NCBI GenBank assembly: GCA_020635515.1
Contig: JACJZS010000002.1
Location: 1,162,273-1,226,272, forward strand
Reading direction: 5' to 3'
Length of the DNA stretch: 64,000 bases
Source of the DNA: Flavobacteriales bacterium
GTDB lineage: Bacteria > Bacteroidota > Bacteroidia > Flavobacteriales > Weeksellaceae
Shown here: positions 3,703 to 40,774 of the stretch, piece after piece
Layout of the letters: every line of letters begins with the position of its first letter
Numbering within the stretch: the stretch's first letter is position 1
Program-made: the position numbers and the translations under genes
Notes under the pieces: generated by a model
Told to the model about the DNA's origin: nothing
The model's input: only the letters and a program-made list of their open reading frames with translations
Database searches by the model: none

Positions 3703-4321
3703 TTTGTGTGTTTAGACGATTTTGAATAAAATTGGTAAGAATTTCTATAGAAGCTGGATTTCTTTTCATATTTGGGATTATGATGTCGGCGTATTTTTTT
3801 GAAGGCTCTATAAATTGTTCATGCATTGGTTTTAGTGTAGTTTGGTATCGAGATAGAACTTCCTCTAATGTTCTGTTTCGTTCTTTTATATCTCTTCTGA
3901 TTCTCCTTATCAATCTTTCATCATCATCAGTAGAAATGAAAACTTTTATATCTAATTCGTTTAGTAGTTCTAAGTTGGAAAAAATTAGTATTCCTTCAAC
4001 AAGTATTATTTTTTTAGGTTTAATGAGAGTAGTTTCTTGTTCTCGATTATGTTTTGCAAAGGAATATATTGGTTGATGTATTGTATTTCCTTTTTTTAAC
4101 TCTTTTATTTGATAGATTAATAAATCAAAATCAATGGAATTTGGGTGGTCGTAATTTAGTTTTTCTCTATCCTCAAAGGAAATAGAAGAATTATCTTTAT
4201 AGTAATTATCTTGCGTAAGAATTGTAATATTTTCTTTACCGATGATTCGCATGATTTCATCAACAACGGTGGTTTTTCCTGAACCTGTTCCTCCAGCAAT
4301 TCCAATAACTAGCATAACCAA
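3689..4321 (-). CDS. udk: Uridine kinase
   Basis: P-loop IGIAGGTGSGKTT at the N-terminus, then the typical Udk pattern (QDNYYKD..., DHPNSIDFDLL, LVEGIL). Confidence 0.9.
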   Translation of the reverse strand: MVMLVIGIAGGTGSGKTTVVDEIMRIIGKENITILTQDNYYKDNSSISFEDREKLNYDHPNSIDFDLLIYQIKELKKGNTIHQPIYSFAKHNREQETTLIKPKKIILVEGILIFSNLELLNELDIKVFISTDDDERLIRRIRRDIKERNRTLEEVLSRYQTTLKPMHEQFIEPSKKYADIIIPNMKRNPASIEILTNFIQNRLNTQNESR

Positions 4322-4408
4322 TCTGTTTTCACAAAAGTAATTAGAAAAAACGAAAAAATGAAAACCTAGTTTATGTAGTTTTAAAAGAAGTAATTTTATC
4401 TTTGCGAT

Positions 4409-5347
4409 ATGAAATTTCCAAGACCATATACATTAAAAGAAATATCCAATAGTATTGGTAGGCAATATGTTGGTGATGATGATTTCCTAATTGAAGGAAT
4501 AAATGAAATTCATAGAGTGCAAAAAGGAGAGATTGTTTTTGTGGATCATCCGAAATATTACGACAAAGCACTCAATAGTAATGCAAGTATTATACTTATA
4601 GACAAAATTGTAGATTGTCCTGAAGATAAATGCCTTATCATTTCAGAAGATCCATTTTCAGATTTTAATAAAATAACTTCTTTTTTTCGTCCATTTCTGC
4701 CTGCTAATACATCGATTTCGGATTCTGCAGAGATAGGAGAAGGAACTACGATTCAACCGAATGCATTTATAGGAAACAATGTAAAAATAGGAGAAAACTG
4801 TATTATCCATTCCAATGTTTCTATATATGATAATTGTGAAATAGGAAACAACGTAATCATTCATTCGGGAACAGTACTAGGTGGAGATGGATTTTATTAT
4901 AAAACACGAAAAGAGAAATATGACAAGTTTCATTCTGTTGGGAATGTGATAGTGGAAGATGATGTAGAAATTGGTTGTAATTGTACTATAGATAGAGGAG
5001 TTACGGATTCTACGATTATAGGGAAAGGAAGTAAATTAGATAATTTAATTCAAATAGGACACGAGGTAATTATAGGTGAAAAGTGTTTAATTGCCTCTCA
5101 AGTAGGAATTGCAGGTTGTGTAACTGTAGAAGATAACGTAACTATATGGGGACAAGTAGGAATTCGTTCTGATATAAAAATTGAGAAAAATGCAGTGGTT
5201 TTAGCACAAGCGGGAGTTTCCAAAGATTTAAAAGGCGGTGTTGTTTATTGGGGAACTCCAGCAGAGCCTGTAAGGGAACATAACAAGAAACTTATTCTTC
5301 TTAAAAACTTACCGAAACTCATCGAGGAAATAAAAAATAAATTCTAA
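4409..5347 (+). CDS. lpxD: UDP-3-O-(3-hydroxyacyl)glucosamine N-acyltransferase
   Basis: 312 aa. Hexapeptide-repeat left-handed beta-helix (many IGxN/VxIG repeats) with an LpxD-type N-terminal domain ([12 protein letters not shown]...). Confidence 0.8.
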
Positions 5348-23550: not shown

Positions 23551-24408
23551 ATGAAATTTCCTGATTATATTACAACAGAAAAACTTAATTATTTTATAAA
23601 GAATGCATTAGAAGAAGATTTAGGAGGTGGAGATTATTCTACTCTTGCTACTATTCCCAAAAGTTTAATTCAAAAAGCACAGCTTATTGTTAAAGAAGAT
23701 TGTATTCTTGCAGGAGTTGAAATTGCTAATTATATCTTTAAGTATTTTGATGAATCCATACAAATTGAGAATCTAATTAAAGACGGAAGTAGTGTGAAAA
23801 AAGGAGATATTGCTTTTATTGTAGAAGGTAAAGCACAATCAATTTTAAGTACAGAAAGACTTATTCTCAACTGTATGCAACGAATGAGCGGAATTGCTAC
23901 GTATACTTACCAAATGAATCAACTGATTAAAGATACCAATTGCAAACTTTTAGATACCAGGAAAACAACTCCCAATTTTAGAATGCTAGAAAAACTTGCA
24001 GTTCTTATAGGTGGAGGAACGAATCATCGATTTGGATTGTATGACATGATTATGCTCAAAGACAATCACATAGATTACAACGGAAGCATTACCAATGCTG
24101 TAGAAATGACAAAAAAATACCTTAAAGAAAATAATTTAAACCTAAAGATAGAAGTAGAAACTAGAAATTTAGAAGAAGTAAAAGAAGCACTAAAAAGTAA
24201 GGTAGATAGAATCATGCTCGACAATATGAACTATGAAACCATGAAAAAAGCCGTAGCAATAATTGACAAGCAATGTGAAACGGAAGCTTCTGGTGGAATC
24301 ACAGAAAAAAACCTACGTCAAGTTTCAGAAACAGGAGTTGATTTTATCTCCATCGGTGCTTTAATTCACTCAGCAAAAAACATTGATTTAAGTTTAAAAG
24401 CGGTTTAG
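23551..24408 (+). CDS. nadC: Nicotinate-nucleotide pyrophosphorylase (carboxylating) / quinolinate phosphoribosyltransferase
   Basis: 285 aa with conserved NadC regions (RMSGIAT, LDTRKTTP, IMLDNM). Confidence 0.9.
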   Translation: MKFPDYITTEKLNYFIKNALEEDLGGGDYSTLATIPKSLIQKAQLIVKEDCILAGVEIANYIFKYFDESIQIENLIKDGSSVKKGDIAFIVEGKAQSILSTERLILNCMQRMSGIATYTYQMNQLIKDTNCKLLDTRKTTPNFRMLEKLAVLIGGGTNHRFGLYDMIMLKDNHIDYNGSITNAVEMTKKYLKENNLNLKIEVETRNLEEVKEALKSKVDRIMLDNMNYETMKKAVAIIDKQCETEASGGITEKNLRQVSETGVDFISIGALIHSAKNIDLSLKAV

Positions 24409-24410
24409 AT

Positions 24411-24492
24411 TTTTTAGAGGAGAGAAGATAGAGAAAAGAACAAAGACGTGGCAAAACCATATTCTATCCTCTTTGTTCTAATGTCTTTTTTC
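24411..24492. repeat. Direct repeat, left copy (~82 bp), flanking the TA cassette; contains a 10-bp-stem hairpin
   Basis: tttttagaggagagaagatagagaaaagaacaaagacgtggcaaaaccatattctatcctctttgttctaatgtcttttttc. It recurs at 25066..25160. Inside it, agaacaaaga and tctttgttct are inverted repeats. Confidence 0.7.
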
Positions 24493-24494
24493 TT

Positions 24495-24805
24495 CTAAGA
24501 AATAGGTTTTTCTCTAGTTCCTCTAAAATTAATGATTTCAATTAGCTTTTTTCTAGATTTTATTCGGTAAATTATGTAATTATTCTTGTCTATCAATTAT
24601 TCTTGTCTATCAATCCTTTATGAGTGTTTTTGAACCTTGAAGTTTGAGGAAACATCAAAGGATATTCCTTAATGGATTCAATAAATTTTTCAATTTTAGA
24701 TTCCAGTTGTTTAATTTCTCTAGTTGTCCATTCTTTTTCTAAGTAATTTATGGCTTTATCAAGTCCCTTAAGAGCTTGAGGAGTCCAAAGTACTTTTACT
24801 TCCAT
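24495..24805 (-). pseudogene. ParE/RelE-family type II toxin gene disrupted by a 17-bp tandem duplication; the track-called remnant is 24593..24805 (70 aa)
   Basis: The called ORF ends at GLIDKNN*, with the stop created inside the second copy of the duplicated 17-mer. Deleting one copy in silico restores the frame and gives MEVKVLWTPQALKGLDKAINYLEKEW...GLIDKNNYIIYRIKSRKKLIEIINFRGTREKPIS*, 98 aa. That is the canonical ParE/RelE N- and C-terminal signature, with a stop at 24495-24497. Confidence 0.7.
24580..24613. repeat. Perfect 17-bp tandem duplication (ttattcttgtctatcaa x2) causing the toxin frameshift
   Basis: Copies read directly at 24580-24596 and 24597-24613. 17 is not divisible by 3, and on the minus strand the junction reads ...aataaTTGAtag..., introducing a TGA. 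Confidence 0.9.
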
Positions 24806-25023
24806 TTGGAAAATCTTTTCATTGCCTCTTTATGAGAAATTCCTTCTTCATGATTTGCCTCTTTAATTCCTTGAGCAATTTCTTCTTGTTCTGTTTCTGA
24901 AAGATTAATCCACCAATCCGTTTTTTCTTCTCTCAGTACCTGATCTAAATGTTTAATAACACTCTCTTTATTTAAAGCAATGATTCTTTGAATGATGTCT
25001 AATTTAGTAAGTTCCAAATTCAT
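24796..25023 (-). CDS. Type II antitoxin, putative addiction-module component (ParD/Phd-like small helical protein)
   Basis: MNLELTKLDIIQRIIALNKESVIKHLDQVL...AMKRFSKWK. Its stop overlaps the toxin start by 10 bp, the classic TA arrangement. The ORF-track start (25041) adds MYIWSI; the internal Met at 25023 is preferred. Confidence 0.6.
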   Translation of the reverse strand: MNLELTKLDIIQRIIALNKESVIKHLDQVLREEKTDWWINLSETEQEEIAQGIKEANHEEGISHKEAMKRFSKWK

Positions 25024-25065
25024 GATACTCCAAATATACAAAATTATTTATTTGACTTTTAGATT

Positions 25066-25160
25066 TTTTAGAGGAAAGAAGATAGAGGAAAGAAGATAGA
25101 GAAAAGAACAAAGATGTGGCAAAACCATATTCTATCCTCTTTGTTCTAATGTCTTTTCTC
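25066..25160. repeat. Direct repeat, right copy (~95 bp), with an internal 14-bp tandem duplication
   Basis: Matches the left copy except for three point mismatches (g/a, c/t, t/c) and an extra gaaagaagatagag. It ends 16 bp before the stop of the TPR gene. Confidence 0.7.
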
Positions 25161-25176
25161 TATCTTTTACTATCTC

Positions 25177-28131
25177 TCAAAATTTCTTCTTCACTTTATT
25201 AGCTTCTTCTATAATATCCGAATATTCGGTATAATTTTCCAATACTTGGTTTATAGTGTAGTTTGCTTGATACAAATCATTTAAATAGAAATAATTTTCA
25301 GACATTACAACCAAAGATTTTGCTCCCCAGTATTGTTGTTCAGAATAATTAGATACCAAATTGAATATTACTTCGTTGGATTCTTTATACTTTTTATCTT
25401 TATTTAGAAAGTATGCCTTGTAATACAAACTTTCTGCTTTTACGGCTTCATTACTCGAATTTTCTAATTCTTTGTATAATTCTTTTGCTTTATTTTCTTC
25501 TCCTAAACTTAATTCTGATTTTGCTATAATTACTTTTGCCGTTTCTTTGATTGTTTGTGAATTAGTATCATTTGAAATCACTTTATTTGCCATTTCTACA
25601 GCATTTTTATATTGTTTCTTTTCTGCATACAAATGCATCAATTCCAGTTCACAGAAACTTAAATAATTAGGATTATTAGAAACTTGATACAATGCTTCTA
25701 ATGATAAAAATGCTTCATCTTTTTTGTTTTGATTCAAATAAATTTGAGATAACCTAAGTAACGCTTCTTCTTGATTTTCATTTGGTTTTCCTGCTACTTT
25801 TGTAAAATAAGGAATTGCTTTTTCAAGTTGTTTTAACTGATAATAACTTTCTGCTAAATAGAAATTTACCAAGGTAGTTTTAGTGCTTTTAGGGAAATTA
25901 ATATCAAAACCAGTCAAATCATTGATAGTTTGTTGGTATTTTTGGGAACTGAAACTTTTCTGAGCAACAGCGAATACAAATTCTTCTTTTTCTTGGTTGG
26001 TAATGGAATAATTGATGCTTTTAATCCAGCTTTCAAAACCTTTAACATTTCCTGTTTTTACATAAAGTGATTGAGCTTCAGAAACTGCTCGCTTTACATA
26101 ATCGGTTTGTGCGTATTTTTTTGCGATTGATTTATACTCATTAATTGCTCTTTCATCTTGATTTAACTGTGCATAACTATCGGCACGAGCAAAATAAGAG
26201 TTTGTTAGGATTTCATTTTGCTTATCCATAGAAATTACTTTGTCGTAATAACTAATTGCATCATTGTATTTTTGTAGAGAATAGTATGCATTTGCAATTT
26301 CGTAATAAGCGGTTTGTTTTTTATCGCTATTAGGATAGTTTTGTATATAATCTTGAAGTGTTTTTATTTTTTCACTTTGTTTTCCTTGCAATCCATATAG
26401 ATTTGCTCGCTGAAATGTTGCATATTCAGAATTTTCCGTTTCTTCTGCTGTATCATAAATTGCAATAGCTTTATCGTAATTATTCAATCCTAAATACGCA
26501 TCTGCAAGGCGAAGTTTTGCATCTTCTTCTAACTCTTTTGTTGGATTATTTAAAAAACGCTCAAAGTATTCAACAGATTTTTCATAATTCTTTACTTTTA
26601 AATACGTAAATCCAAACAAATAAGGAAGTTGTATTTTTTCTGAATAATTAATGTTGATTTTCTCTAAGGTTTTTAAATTTAGGAGAGTTTCAGTATAATT
26701 ACCTAACTGAAAATTAGATTCTGCACTCCAGAAAAGAGATTTTGCTAACACTTCTTGATTAGACGTAATTTCTATTGCGTGTTTAAAGTTATCTATTGCT
26801 TGCTGGTACTTTCCTTCATTAAAAAGACGTACTCCATTTAGGTACGAAACTTCTTGGTATGCATTTTTTAATTCAGGAGATTTATTTGATTTTGTTTTTA
26901 GAATGTTTACAGCATCGTCTAACTGATTTGATTTCACATAGGATTTTACCAAAAGTTGGTTCATTTTTGCTTGATGTGGATTTTTAGGATAGTTGTCCAA
27001 AAAACGCTGAATTGCATTTGGTGTAGATTCAAATGGATTCCCAATATCAAAACTTAATTTCGCATAGTTGTAATGAGCATTTTCAGCAACTTTTGCATTA
27101 AAGTTCATTTCGCTTGCAGATTTATACGCAGTTAATGCTTCCTGCTTTTTGTTGGTTTTTAGATACGAATTACCTAATTGATAATATGCATTTTGTCCTA
27201 ATTCCGAATTTTCAGAAGTTATCTTATTAAAGTTATCTACCGCTTTTTGGTAGTTTCCGTTCACATAATACACATATCCTAATTGGTAAAAGTCTGATGC
27301 TTTTGGATTTTCTTGCGAATCAATATAATTTTCTAAGTATGGAATAGCTTGTTTGTATTCTTGAAGTTTAAAGTAACTTTCTCCTATAATTTTTGAGATT
27401 TCTGATTTCATCTCAGGAAATGCTCCCGAATTGAGAAGTTTTTTCCCTTCCTCTATTGCTTGATTGTATTTTTTGTCGTTAAAATAAATTTGAATCAAAT
27501 ATGGACGAACTTTTTGAGAATAATTTTCATGATTTAAAAGAGGTTCAAAATAGTTCATTACTTGAGCATATTTTCCTTCATGATAAAGAATATGTCCTAT
27601 CATGTAATCGGTTTCATTTTTATAATGATTTGCTTTATTGACTTTTTTTAGTGGAGATAATGCTTTTTGATATTCCTCACTCATAAAATAAGCATATCCT
27701 AGTTTGTAATAATGATTAATTTTTTCTTCTTCATTAAAATCGCTCGGTAAAACTTTAGATAAATAATATGCAGAATTTTCATATTGTCCATTTATCAAAT
27801 AGAAATTTCCAAGCGGTTCATATAGAGAATATTCTTGTTTTATTTCTGGATTTTCATTTGCATACTTTTCATATTCTTCTAGTGCATATTTCTCTTGAAG
27901 AACCAAATCAGCAACTACTTTTTTGAATGTTAAATCATTAGCAATAACAGCATTTGGTTTCTGAAAACTCAGTATATCTCTTGCTGAATTTTGTACAGCA
28001 GAATATGCTTTGTCATTAAACTGACTTTCTGCTTTTGTGATTTCGTATGTAATTTGTTTATAATAATCAGATTGTTGACCAAAAGAAAATGTAGTAAATA
28101 ATATATATATATAAAGACTTTTGAATTTCAT
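25177..28131 (-). CDS. Tetratricopeptide-repeat (TPR) protein with signal peptide, 984 aa
   Basis: An N-terminal signal peptide, then TPR-like 34-aa repeats along the whole length (recurrent Y..G..Y..A motifs). Confidence 0.8.
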   Translation of the reverse strand: MKFKSLYIYILFTTFSFGQQSDYYKQITYEITKAESQFNDKAYSAVQNSARDILSFQKPNAVIANDLTFKKVVADLVLQEKYALEEYEKYANENPEIKQEYSLYEPLGNFYLINGQYENSAYYLSKVLPSDFNEEEKINHYYKLGYAYFMSEEYQKALSPLKKVNKANHYKNETDYMIGHILYHEGKYAQVMNYFEPLLNHENYSQKVRPYLIQIYFNDKKYNQAIEEGKKLLNSGAFPEMKSEISKIIGESYFKLQEYKQAIPYLENYIDSQENPKASDFYQLGYVYYVNGNYQKAVDNFNKITSENSELGQNAYYQLGNSYLKTNKKQEALTAYKSASEMNFNAKVAENAHYNYAKLSFDIGNPFESTPNAIQRFLDNYPKNPHQAKMNQLLVKSYVKSNQLDDAVNILKTKSNKSPELKNAYQEVSYLNGVRLFNEGKYQQAIDNFKHAIEITSNQEVLAKSLFWSAESNFQLGNYTETLLNLKTLEKININYSEKIQLPYLFGFTYLKVKNYEKSVEYFERFLNNPTKELEEDAKLRLADAYLGLNNYDKAIAIYDTAEETENSEYATFQRANLYGLQGKQSEKIKTLQDYIQNYPNSDKKQTAYYEIANAYYSLQKYNDAISYYDKVISMDKQNEILTNSYFARADSYAQLNQDERAINEYKSIAKKYAQTDYVKRAVSEAQSLYVKTGNVKGFESWIKSINYSITNQEKEEFVFAVAQKSFSSQKYQQTINDLTGFDINFPKSTKTTLVNFYLAESYYQLKQLEKAIPYFTKVAGKPNENQEEALLRLSQIYLNQNKKDEAFLSLEALYQVSNNPNYLSFCELELMHLYAEKKQYKNAVEMANKVISNDTNSQTIKETAKVIIAKSELSLGEENKAKELYKELENSSNEAVKAESLYYKAYFLNKDKKYKESNEVIFNLVSNYSEQQYWGAKSLVVMSENYFYLNDLYQANYTINQVLENYTEYSDIIEEANKVKKKF

Positions 28132-39769: not shown

Positions 39770-40774
39770 ATGGAAATAAAAGAGTATAATACACTTTTTG
39801 TAGATATAAAGCAAAAAATACAGAACGCTCAAATAAAGGCTATTGTTGCTGTAAATACCGAATTAATTATACTTTATTGGAATATAGGAAATAGTATTTT
39901 AAAACAACAACAAAGCCTAGGATGGTCAGCTAGCGTTATTCCTCTTTTATCAAAAGATTTAAAAAAATCATTCCCTAAAATTAAAGGGTATTCGGAAAGG
40001 AATTTAAGTTATATGCTTCGTTTTGCTAAGGAATATAATGATGAGGTATTTTTGCAACAGACTGTTGCAAAAATACCTTGGGGGCATAATATTTTACTTA
40101 TTGAAAAATTAAAAAATATTAAAATACGAAAATGGTATATTCAAAAATGCATAGAAAACAACTGGAGTAGAGATGTATTAGATTTTCAAATTAAATCTAA
40201 CTTATATAAAAGGGAAGGAAGTTCAATTAATAATTTTAAGAATACTTTGCCTAAACCTTTTTCTGATTTAGCAAACCAAACATTAAAAGATCCTTATATT
40301 TTTGATTTTCTTTCATTAGATGAAAAAATTAGAGAAAAAGATATAGAACGACAATTAATTGAACATATCAGTAAATTTTTATTAGAACTTGGTAAAGGGT
40401 TTGCTTATATAGGAAATCAATATCATTTAAAAATAGCAGAAAATGATTATTATTTAGATTTACTTTTTTATCATACTAAATTAAAATGTTATGTCGTAAT
40501 TGAATTAAAAAACACAAAATTTATTCCAGAGTTTGCGGGGAAATTAAACTTTTATTTATCTGCTGTTGATACCCTGATAAAAGATGAATCTGATAATCCT
40601 ACTATTGGTATTCTGTTATGTAAAGATAAAAATAATATAGAGGCTGAATTTGCCTTAAGAGATTTAAATAAACCAATGGGTATAAGTGAATTGAAATTAA
40701 TAGAAAACTTACCTGAAGACCTTAAAAGTAGCTTGCCTACTATTGATGAAATTGAAAAAGAATTCAAGAAATAA
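39770..40774 (+). CDS. PDDEXK-nuclease domain protein, DUF1016 / YhcG family
   Basis: The N-terminal YhcG-like region, the WSRDVL motif and a C-terminal restriction-endonuclease-like core (D...ELK). This family is frequently found in accessory contexts. Confidence 0.8.
   Translation: MEIKEYNTLFVDIKQKIQNAQIKAIVAVNTELIILYWNIGNSILKQQQSLGWSASVIPLLSKDLKKSFPKIKGYSERNLSYMLRFAKEYNDEVFLQQTVAKIPWGHNILLIEKLKNIKIRKWYIQKCIENNWSRDVLDFQIKSNLYKREGSSINNFKNTLPKPFSDLANQTLKDPYIFDFLSLDEKIREKDIERQLIEHISKFLLELGKGFAYIGNQYHLKIAENDYYLDLLFYHTKLKCYVVIELKNTKFIPEFAGKLNFYLSAVDTLIKDESDNPTIGILLCKDKNNIEAEFALRDLNKPMGISELKLIENLPEDLKSSLPTIDEIEKEFKK

Follow-up and report, generated by a model that had tools for sequence, protein, structure and literature searches.

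We analyzed a stretch of 64,000 nucleotides from the metagenome-assembled genome (MAG) of a Flavobacteriales bacterium (assembly GCA_020635515.1, contig JACJZS010000002.1, positions 1,162,273 to 1,226,272 of the forward strand). This stretch, hereafter the window, has a G+C content of 30.4%. We focus on a locus of 750 bp in which a small toxin-antitoxin (TA) cassette lies between two direct copies of one sequence, in the spacer that separates the convergent 3' ends of nadC and of a gene encoding a protein with TPR repeats (Table 1). The genes of this neighbourhood are housekeeping genes. We argue below that the cassette was probably inserted in the nadC-TPR spacer with the duplication of about 90 bp of target DNA.

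The direct repeat described in the original prediction was recovered by a repeat search, by blastn, and by a pattern search with its 41-nt core (GAACAAAGAYGTGGCAAAACCATATTCTATCCTCTTTGTTC), which matches exactly two sites in the window and none in 100 shuffles of it. The three mismatches between the copies (24422, 24447, and 24490) and the perfect 14-bp tandem duplication within the right copy (TAGAGGAAAGAAGA, 25069-25096, score of 73 in Tandem Repeats Finder, TRF) were found as announced. The location of the copies was also right, but the extents initially proposed (24411-24492 and 25066-25160) are too short: the left copy spans about 90 nt and the right one 104 nt, with a core of 75-79 nt that is 96-97% identical between them. 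The left copy had been placed 3 bp away from the nadC stop codon and in fact overlaps it, its 5' end (TTTAG, 24404-24408) being made of the final two bases of the last codon of nadC and of the stop codon itself. The right copy ends 15 nt, instead of 16 bp, from the TPR stop codon (25177-25179). No third copy was identified by blastn-short in the window, which rules out a dispersed repeat within these 64 kb, and a 22-mer of the repeat had no match in species-representative genomes.

The repeat consists of native DNA of the nadC-TPR spacer. The product of nadC ends in ...LSLKAV*, at the same residue as a homologue with 79% identity (P0002) and as another homologue (P0038). Hence, the TTTAG present in both copies is the end of nadC itself, and a piece of this gene is found duplicated in the right copy. 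The repeat covers the whole spacer except for 15 nt. When the outer halves of the two copies are joined, the reconstructed single-copy spacer is about 105 nt long and adopts a single long hairpin whichever strand is folded (-34.1 and -31.7 kcal/mol, z = -4.7 and -3.8).

The repeat is a long imperfect palindrome, with stems of 13 bp and 9 bp, a bulge of 7 nt, and a loop of 23 nt, and it lacks a layout of R-box, spacer, and L-box. The arms of the hairpin in the left copy are at 24423-24446 and 24470-24493. Its inner stem has the 10 bp that had been predicted (24437-24446 and 24470-24479) and is extended by an outer stem, but its loop has 23 nt and not 24. The RNA of the plus strand folds with -31.2 kcal/mol in the left copy (z = -4.2) and -36.7 kcal/mol in the right one (z = -4.3). 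This fold and the position between convergent genes suggest that the hairpin is probably a two-way transcription terminator. A scan for canonical terminators, with a G+C-rich stem and a T-tract, did not call it. There were no matches to Rfam at gathering thresholds and no tRNA genes in the window, which excludes a known RNA or tRNA in the repeat.

The DNA between the repeat copies contains a 34-nt leader, the antitoxin gene, the toxin gene, and 1 nt. These two genes are the only ones in the cassette, are both on the minus strand, and overlap by 10 nt. The leader, which fills the 34 nt between the right repeat copy and the ATG of the antitoxin, has a candidate promoter box that matches the -7 consensus of Bacteroidetes promoters, TAnnTTTG, and a box of this type is similarly placed upstream of the antitoxin in related cassettes. 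The truncated open reading frame (ORF) of the toxin matches the Pfam family ParE_toxin (PF05016) with 28.6 bits, for a cut-off of 23, over positions 1-48 of the 89 of the profile. The NCBIfam family RelE_StbE scored under its cut-off, and the nearest structures in a search of PDB with the toxin profile were the ParE toxins 5cw7 and 3kxe. The toxin is broken: a perfect 17-bp tandem duplication introduces a frameshift after codon 70, leaving no intact toxin gene. Removing one of the two 17-bp copies restores a toxin of 97 amino acids (aa) whose stop codon, TAG, is at 24495-24497. The ancestral toxin had been thought to reach into the left repeat copy. Instead, the repaired frame abuts this copy and stops 1 nt outside of it. 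We found 70 homologues of the repaired toxin. Nearly all measure 96-100 aa, their identities reach 65%, and the toxin aligns with 68 of them at a coverage of 95-100%. Of 88 related loci, 87 have a homologous antitoxin (28-48% identity) immediately upstream of the toxin, as found by tblastn. Judging by the family profile and by the linked antitoxin, the cassette is a type II TA system of the ParE/RelE superfamily. Since it has just the two overlapping genes and their leader, and since the toxin is frameshifted, the insert is a minimal TA operon that is dead on the toxin side.

Table 1. Features of the locus between nadC and the TPR gene, with positions given in the window.
Feature	Position	Strand	Notes
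Left repeat copy, nadC-proximal	24404..24493		directly 3' of the minus-strand toxin gene; repeat search and blastn
Right repeat copy, TPR-proximal	25058..25161		begins with a duplicate of the nadC TTTAG; repeat search and blastn
Inserted cassette, whole	24494..25057	-	564 bp at present, 547 bp without the 17-bp duplication; extends from the inner end of one repeat copy to that of the other
ParE/RelE-family toxin pseudogene	24495..24805	-	present ORF 24593-24805, 70 aa
17-bp tandem duplication, perfect, two copies (AATTATTCTTGTCTATC)	24578..24611 (24578-24594 / 24595-24611)	.	TRF score 74, maximum of the window
Antitoxin gene, 75 aa, intact	24796..25023	-	ORF list and translation
Candidate promoter box TATATTTG, in the 34-nt leader	25031..25038	-	matches the Bacteroidetes -7 box TAnnTTTG
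nadC (quinolinate phosphoribosyltransferase), left neighbour	23551..24408	+	Pfam QRPTase_C E = 6e-61, QRPTase_N E = 7e-20
TPR-repeat protein gene, 984 aa, right neighbour, convergent with nadC	25177..28131	-	many Pfam TPR families, best E = 7e-38

The flanking of the TA pair by direct repeats is not specific to the window. We collected homologous TA pairs with their contexts in assemblies and metagenomes, compared the 700 nt upstream of each pair with the 700 nt downstream, and grouped the loci that share flanks into 50 independent contexts. With a threshold of at least 50 bits, 13 of these 50 contexts have flanking direct repeats, with lengths of 36-180 nt and identities of 82-99%. By comparison, mismatched pairs of flanks score at most 29.5 bits, and a single one of 370 ordinary genes (150-370 aa, from 80 Bacteroidota loci) reaches 50 bits. 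The odds ratio is about 130 (Fisher p = 3e-12), an enrichment of about 100-fold, and the same comparison of flanks gave no comparable excess of inverted repeats. Flanking direct repeats thus recur with this TA family and are enriched around it. When the flanking repeats were compared all-against-all, those of different loci showed no significant similarity to one another, which rules out an att-like sequence common to all of them. On closer reading, conserved junction motifs are visible within one subgroup.

One of these relatives (L153) has a repeat that includes coding sequence. Downstream of the TA pair, the copy is part of the 3' coding end of a gene that is convergent and matches the Pfam family Nmad3. 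The ~57 residues encoded there are also encoded by the upstream copy, in which a frameshift interrupts them. At this locus, the repeat certainly stems from a duplication of target DNA, coding sequence included, in parallel with the 5 nt of nadC in the repeat of the window. The segment inserted there with the TA pair (L153:568-986) has an extra ORF of 62 codons (MKASTLKKHLIKIAESL...), without a Pfam match, that could be a second antitoxin-like gene. We also compared two loci with a common left context, one with flanking repeats (L160) and one without (L168), but their right flanks differ and the comparison is not a clean one. In Aquimarina macrocephali (L083), a 52-nt element located 2 nt past the toxin stop codon (4296-4347) is found again 236 nt further downstream (4532-4583), with 88-94% identity and on the same side of the TA pair.

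The loss of the toxin is also not restricted to the window. Toxins with a single in-frame stop codon, at varying positions, are present in seven other independent contexts (L114, L123-125, which share the context of L106, L127, L132, L149, L150/L152, and L151) and in a short contig (L121) that is not among the 50. In these loci the remaining toxin sequence and the antitoxin look intact. As single premature stop codons occur in seven other contexts, toxin-first decay appears to be common, which suggests that it has been recurrent across the family.

Insertions of restriction-modification units with long target duplications were reportedly described by Nobusato et al. in 2000 (Gene 259:99). The repeats found around the TA pair resemble these insertions in several respects. 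A later study (Furuta, Abe & Kobayashi, 2010) defined them by an insert of less than 20 kb, the absence of mobility genes, and a repeat longer than 30 bp (PMC2853133). The length of these repeats varies (in the order of 100 bp), a related genome has the empty site in single copy, the repeats frequently span start or stop codons so that the target gene is left intact, and double-strand breakage was proposed to be at their origin (PMC2853133). The insert in the window is likewise smaller than 20 kb, lacks a mobility gene, and is flanked by repeats longer than 30 bp. As in the restriction-modification cases, a small module for post-segregational killing is bounded by long direct repeats that are locus-specific, vary in length, and extend over the stop or start codon of a neighbour. 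There are also differences. Here, a classical type II TA pair takes the place of the restriction-modification system as passenger, the host genome is a Flavobacteriales MAG, and the target is a palindromic, terminator-like sequence between convergent genes. Furthermore, the restriction-modification cases have an empty site, whereas the single-copy site of the window is a reconstruction. A review that treats restriction-modification and TA systems alongside each other lists long target duplications for the former only (PMC3874152), and we found no report of them for classical TA modules in the literature that we searched, although this search was not exhaustive.

The insertion of the TA cassette in the nadC-TPR spacer with a target duplication of about 90 bp is the best reading of the locus, and we regard it as probable given the sequences at hand. 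The original prediction had considered the insertion of a TA module in a terminator-bearing intergenic element and the duplication of that element. This is the best supported of its options, as the repeat amounts to nearly the whole spacer, includes the nadC stop codon, and gives a single hairpin upon reconstruction. A compact type II cassette, comprising a leader with a promoter box, the antitoxin, and the toxin, would have entered the spacer between the convergent genes, and the target would have been duplicated from within the last codon of nadC to 15 nt before the stop codon of the TPR gene. With the target duplicated in this way, both neighbours would have kept their stop codon and a hairpin. 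The TA operon would have acquired a hairpin directly after its own stop codon, and nadC, the TPR gene, and the operon would each now have one at their 3' end.

As for the route of insertion, we infer break-and-repair or recombination rather than a dedicated transposase. The length of the repeats varies between 36 and 180 nt among relatives, which disfavours a transposase with a fixed stagger. A fragment may have been captured at a staggered or re-synthesized double-strand break in the palindrome, with extension of both ends. A template switch during replication, or the integration by a single crossover of a circular fragment bearing a copy of the spacer, are other candidate routes. At a later stage, the 17-bp duplication would have killed the toxin, the antitoxin would have stayed intact, and the right repeat copy would have gained its 14-bp duplication. 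The two top-scoring tandem repeats of the whole window (TRF scores of 74 and 73, the next one being 57) are both within the 750-bp locus, which fits a relaxed selection on this DNA. The corresponding intervals reported by TRF are 24578-24611 and 25069-25108. As the toxin is dead, recombination between the repeat copies could delete the cassette at no cost. The order of these events and the terminator function of the hairpin are, like the mechanism, deduced from the present arrangement.

Several points weigh against this interpretation. Among the nearest nadC loci (70-79% identity, in Weeksellaceae-like genomes) none is an empty-site allele and the nadC-TPR arrangement is not kept. For example, two loci whose nadC homologues have 79% and 73% identity (L081 and L082) differ in their downstream genes, and their spacer is unrelated. 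A locus search based on nadC gave relatives with at most 71% identity, again lacking the nadC-TPR synteny. We thus reconstructed the single-copy ancestor and did not observe it. The search for a third copy of the repeat spans only the 64 kb of the window, out of a contig of ~1.55 Mb. The overlap of 5 nt with nadC could have arisen by chance, with a probability of roughly 1 in 1000. The ends of the cassette are very tight, as one would typically expect from a defined mobile cassette more than from a random illegitimate capture. Finally, the flanking repeats of the family do not all result from target duplication, because several relatives are in arrays of repeated units, some of which are clearly attC-like.

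These relatives are of interest in their own right. At five loci (L113, L119, L098, L114, and L111), the TA cassette is flanked by palindromic units of about 135 nt that resemble the attC sites of integrons. A few nucleotides past the toxin stop codon, the units open with GCCAAC, GCTAAC, or GTAAAC. They end with ...CACGTTG, their long stem shows compensatory changes, and the similarity between copies of this type (type ii) stops exactly at the G/TT junction. Every cassette of the group starts with GTTGGCTTTAAT. We built from the type-ii unit a covariance model (R1), which had 18 matches at E <= 1, none of them in the window. The loci with matches include the five mentioned above as well as L171, L173, L170, and L105, where all the further copies are co-oriented with the genes. 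One TA cassette (L086:3661-4336, compared with L105, L113, L119, and L098), with DNA identities of 89-95%, was found beside three types of flanking units. Its boundary is sharp on the left, at about -122 relative to the ATG of the antitoxin, and lies just past AAAAGCCAACA on the right, and the three types of units have in common only a 5' motif, AACA-NN-CGTATATAA. At L114, the cassette and one attC-like unit lie between perfect 15-nt direct repeats (CGATAGTTATCGGAA, 1436-1450 and 2251-2265) that are part of a palindromic target (TTCCGATAGTTATCGGAA), an arrangement that is not expected from a simple site-specific recombination at G/TT.

Three of the stretches with matches to the model contain long runs of genes: L171:1-15026, which corresponds to Aurantibacter crassamenti (JAFBGM010000001.1, 3001581-3016606), L173:1-12403, and L170:1-11200. 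They consist of co-oriented and unrelated accessory genes, with spacers of 130-290 nt and recurring palindromic units. The spacers have ...AAC just past each stop codon and GTT(G/A)... ahead of the next gene. In L170, a unit of a different type, of about 190 nt, occurs four times in 5 kb, each time at or just past the stop codon of a gene. The three fetched stretches showed no integrase. These look like large cassette arrays of the integron type in Flavobacteriaceae, a group in which integrons were reported to be very rare (PMC9024848). We found no description of integron-like arrays in this family in the literature searched, which was not covered exhaustively. The gene ahead of the array in L170 (L170:5016-6053; homologues P0191-P0310) encodes an NmrA/epimerase-like protein that is conserved with 86-97% identity in many genera of Flavobacteriaceae and beyond. 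It is usually preceded by a gene for a regulator that binds cyclic nucleotide monophosphates, and in L171 and L173 it lies within the runs of accessory genes. These sequences point to a recent horizontal spread of the gene as a cassette. Since the unit that follows it differs between arrays, the gene and its downstream unit are not co-inherited as they are in classical integron cassettes.

The existence of such arrays bears directly on another explanation for the window, also put forward in the original prediction, in which the repeat copies would be recombination sites that mobilize cassettes. They would form a two-site array akin to groups of clustered attC sites without an integron-integrase (CALIN), and the TA pair would have been captured site-specifically by a recombinase encoded elsewhere. 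The suspicion was reasonable and this explanation stays alive, because close relatives of the TA cassette are in attC-like arrays. Homologous cassettes, with DNA identities of 78-95%, are discrete units with sharp ends in many contexts, and the repeat of the window similarly lies 1 nt past the toxin stop codon and 15 nt past that of the TPR gene. As in integron cassettes and CALIN, including the TA cassettes of Vibrio chromosomal integrons (PMC4889954; PMC9024848), a compact TA cassette with a candidate promoter of its own is bracketed by two similar hairpin elements in direct orientation, with no integrase nearby.

The details of the element in the window do not support this explanation, and we consider it unlikely there given the positions of the boxes, the junctions, and the result of the covariance model. 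We used as criteria for attC sites the presence of complementary R'' (RYYYAAC) and R' (GTTRRRY) boxes at the ends of an imperfect palindrome of 57-141 nt, with extrahelical bases and a central spacer that is left unpaired. The sole AAC...GTT pair of the repeat (GAACAAAGA and TCTTTGTTC) is separated by 41 nt and sits centrally in the repeat rather than at the two extremities of the conserved element, and its flanking bases do not fit the pattern of purines and pyrimidines (R/Y). The identity between the copies runs on for 35 nt on one side of the pair and 14-40 nt on the other. More precisely, it extends past the GTT by 14 nt on the plus strand or by 40 nt on the minus strand, without a stop at G/TT. 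The cassette has neither the GTTGGC... start nor the GCCAAC end of its relatives, and the model of the attC-like unit had no match in the window at E <= 1. Unlike the units of arrays, the element is a native spacer with the stop codon of nadC inside, has two copies and no third in 64 kb, and is flanked by housekeeping genes instead of a run of co-oriented cassettes. The absence of an integrase nearby, which had been noted before, was confirmed in so far as no recombinase or transposase domain was found when 20 mid-size ORFs of the window were scanned against Pfam.

The duplication could also be a local event unrelated to the arrival of the TA pair, resulting either from slippage in the spacer followed by the entry of the pair, or from the copy of a flank across a resident pair. 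That the two best tandem duplications of the window (17 bp and 14 bp) are at this locus would fit with such slippage, but they are better explained by relaxed selection on dead DNA. This history requires two independent events at exactly one junction and leaves the ~100-fold enrichment of flanking repeats in unrelated genomes without an explanation, which makes it very improbable. We give even less credit to a remnant of a larger element that integrated at the 3' end of nadC, with the repeats as attL and attR and the rest deleted. Islands that integrate in the 3' ends of genes do leave a repeat over the stop codon, as seen here. However, the TA unit begins and ends right at the inner junctions (1 nt and 34 nt), so that a remnant would have required two precise deletions. 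Neither an integrase nor further DNA of the element has left a trace, and the repeats among relatives are locus-specific in sequence, with lengths of 36-180 nt. Finally, transposons and miniature inverted-repeat transposable elements also leave direct target duplications around their insert. They were rejected given the duplication of ~90 bp and the lack of terminal inverted repeats. Their typical duplications are shorter than 15 bp. We found no terminal inverted repeats that pair the ends of the cassette itself, and the sole inverted match across it is a by-product of the copy of a palindrome. Duplications of 19-26 bp are given as extreme for transposons (PMC2853133).

If the cassette was inserted with a long target duplication, as we favour, the locus offers a clean anatomy of one entry route of solitary TA modules into spacers, without a visible mobility gene. 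It would extend a phenomenon known for restriction-modification units to a classical TA family and to Bacteroidota, and the shared signature points to a common entry route for addiction modules. The flanking repeats predict that the cassette is easily lost once the toxin is dead, as is the case here. The single locus is modest, and its interest is outweighed by that of the family-wide enrichment and of the large integron-like arrays that its relatives reveal in Flavobacteriaceae.

A more speculative link between these observations comes from the acquisition of spacers by clustered regularly interspaced short palindromic repeats (CRISPR) and from casposons. There, a palindromic unit is copied in full when integration takes place at both of its borders, and the repetition of the process would produce arrays in which units and inserts alternate. 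The duplications have a fixed length (that of the CRISPR repeat, or 14-15 bp for casposons) and require integrases of the Cas1 type. By analogy, this TA family, and perhaps the small accessory cassettes of Flavobacteriia in general, might be inserted by a dedicated, unrecognized machinery that acts in trans and duplicates its target. We find this quite improbable, and the comparison is one of analogy only: the repeats of the TA family vary between 36 and 180 nt and no integrase of the Cas1 type was seen here. If such a machinery exists, its repeated use at one site would build co-oriented arrays like those of L170, L171, and L173, and the window would represent the first step, in which a native terminator hairpin, at a naive site, becomes the first pair of units. 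This would bear on the origin of integron-like arrays and of their homogeneous repeats.

Elsewhere in the window, an ORF of 1607 aa, an ORF of 482 aa, and a gene of the YhcG/DUF1016 family of PD-(D/E)XK nucleases (39770-40774) are found in a row between 33426 and 40774. This stretch, of which the nuclease gene was scanned, may be a defence or restriction-type island.

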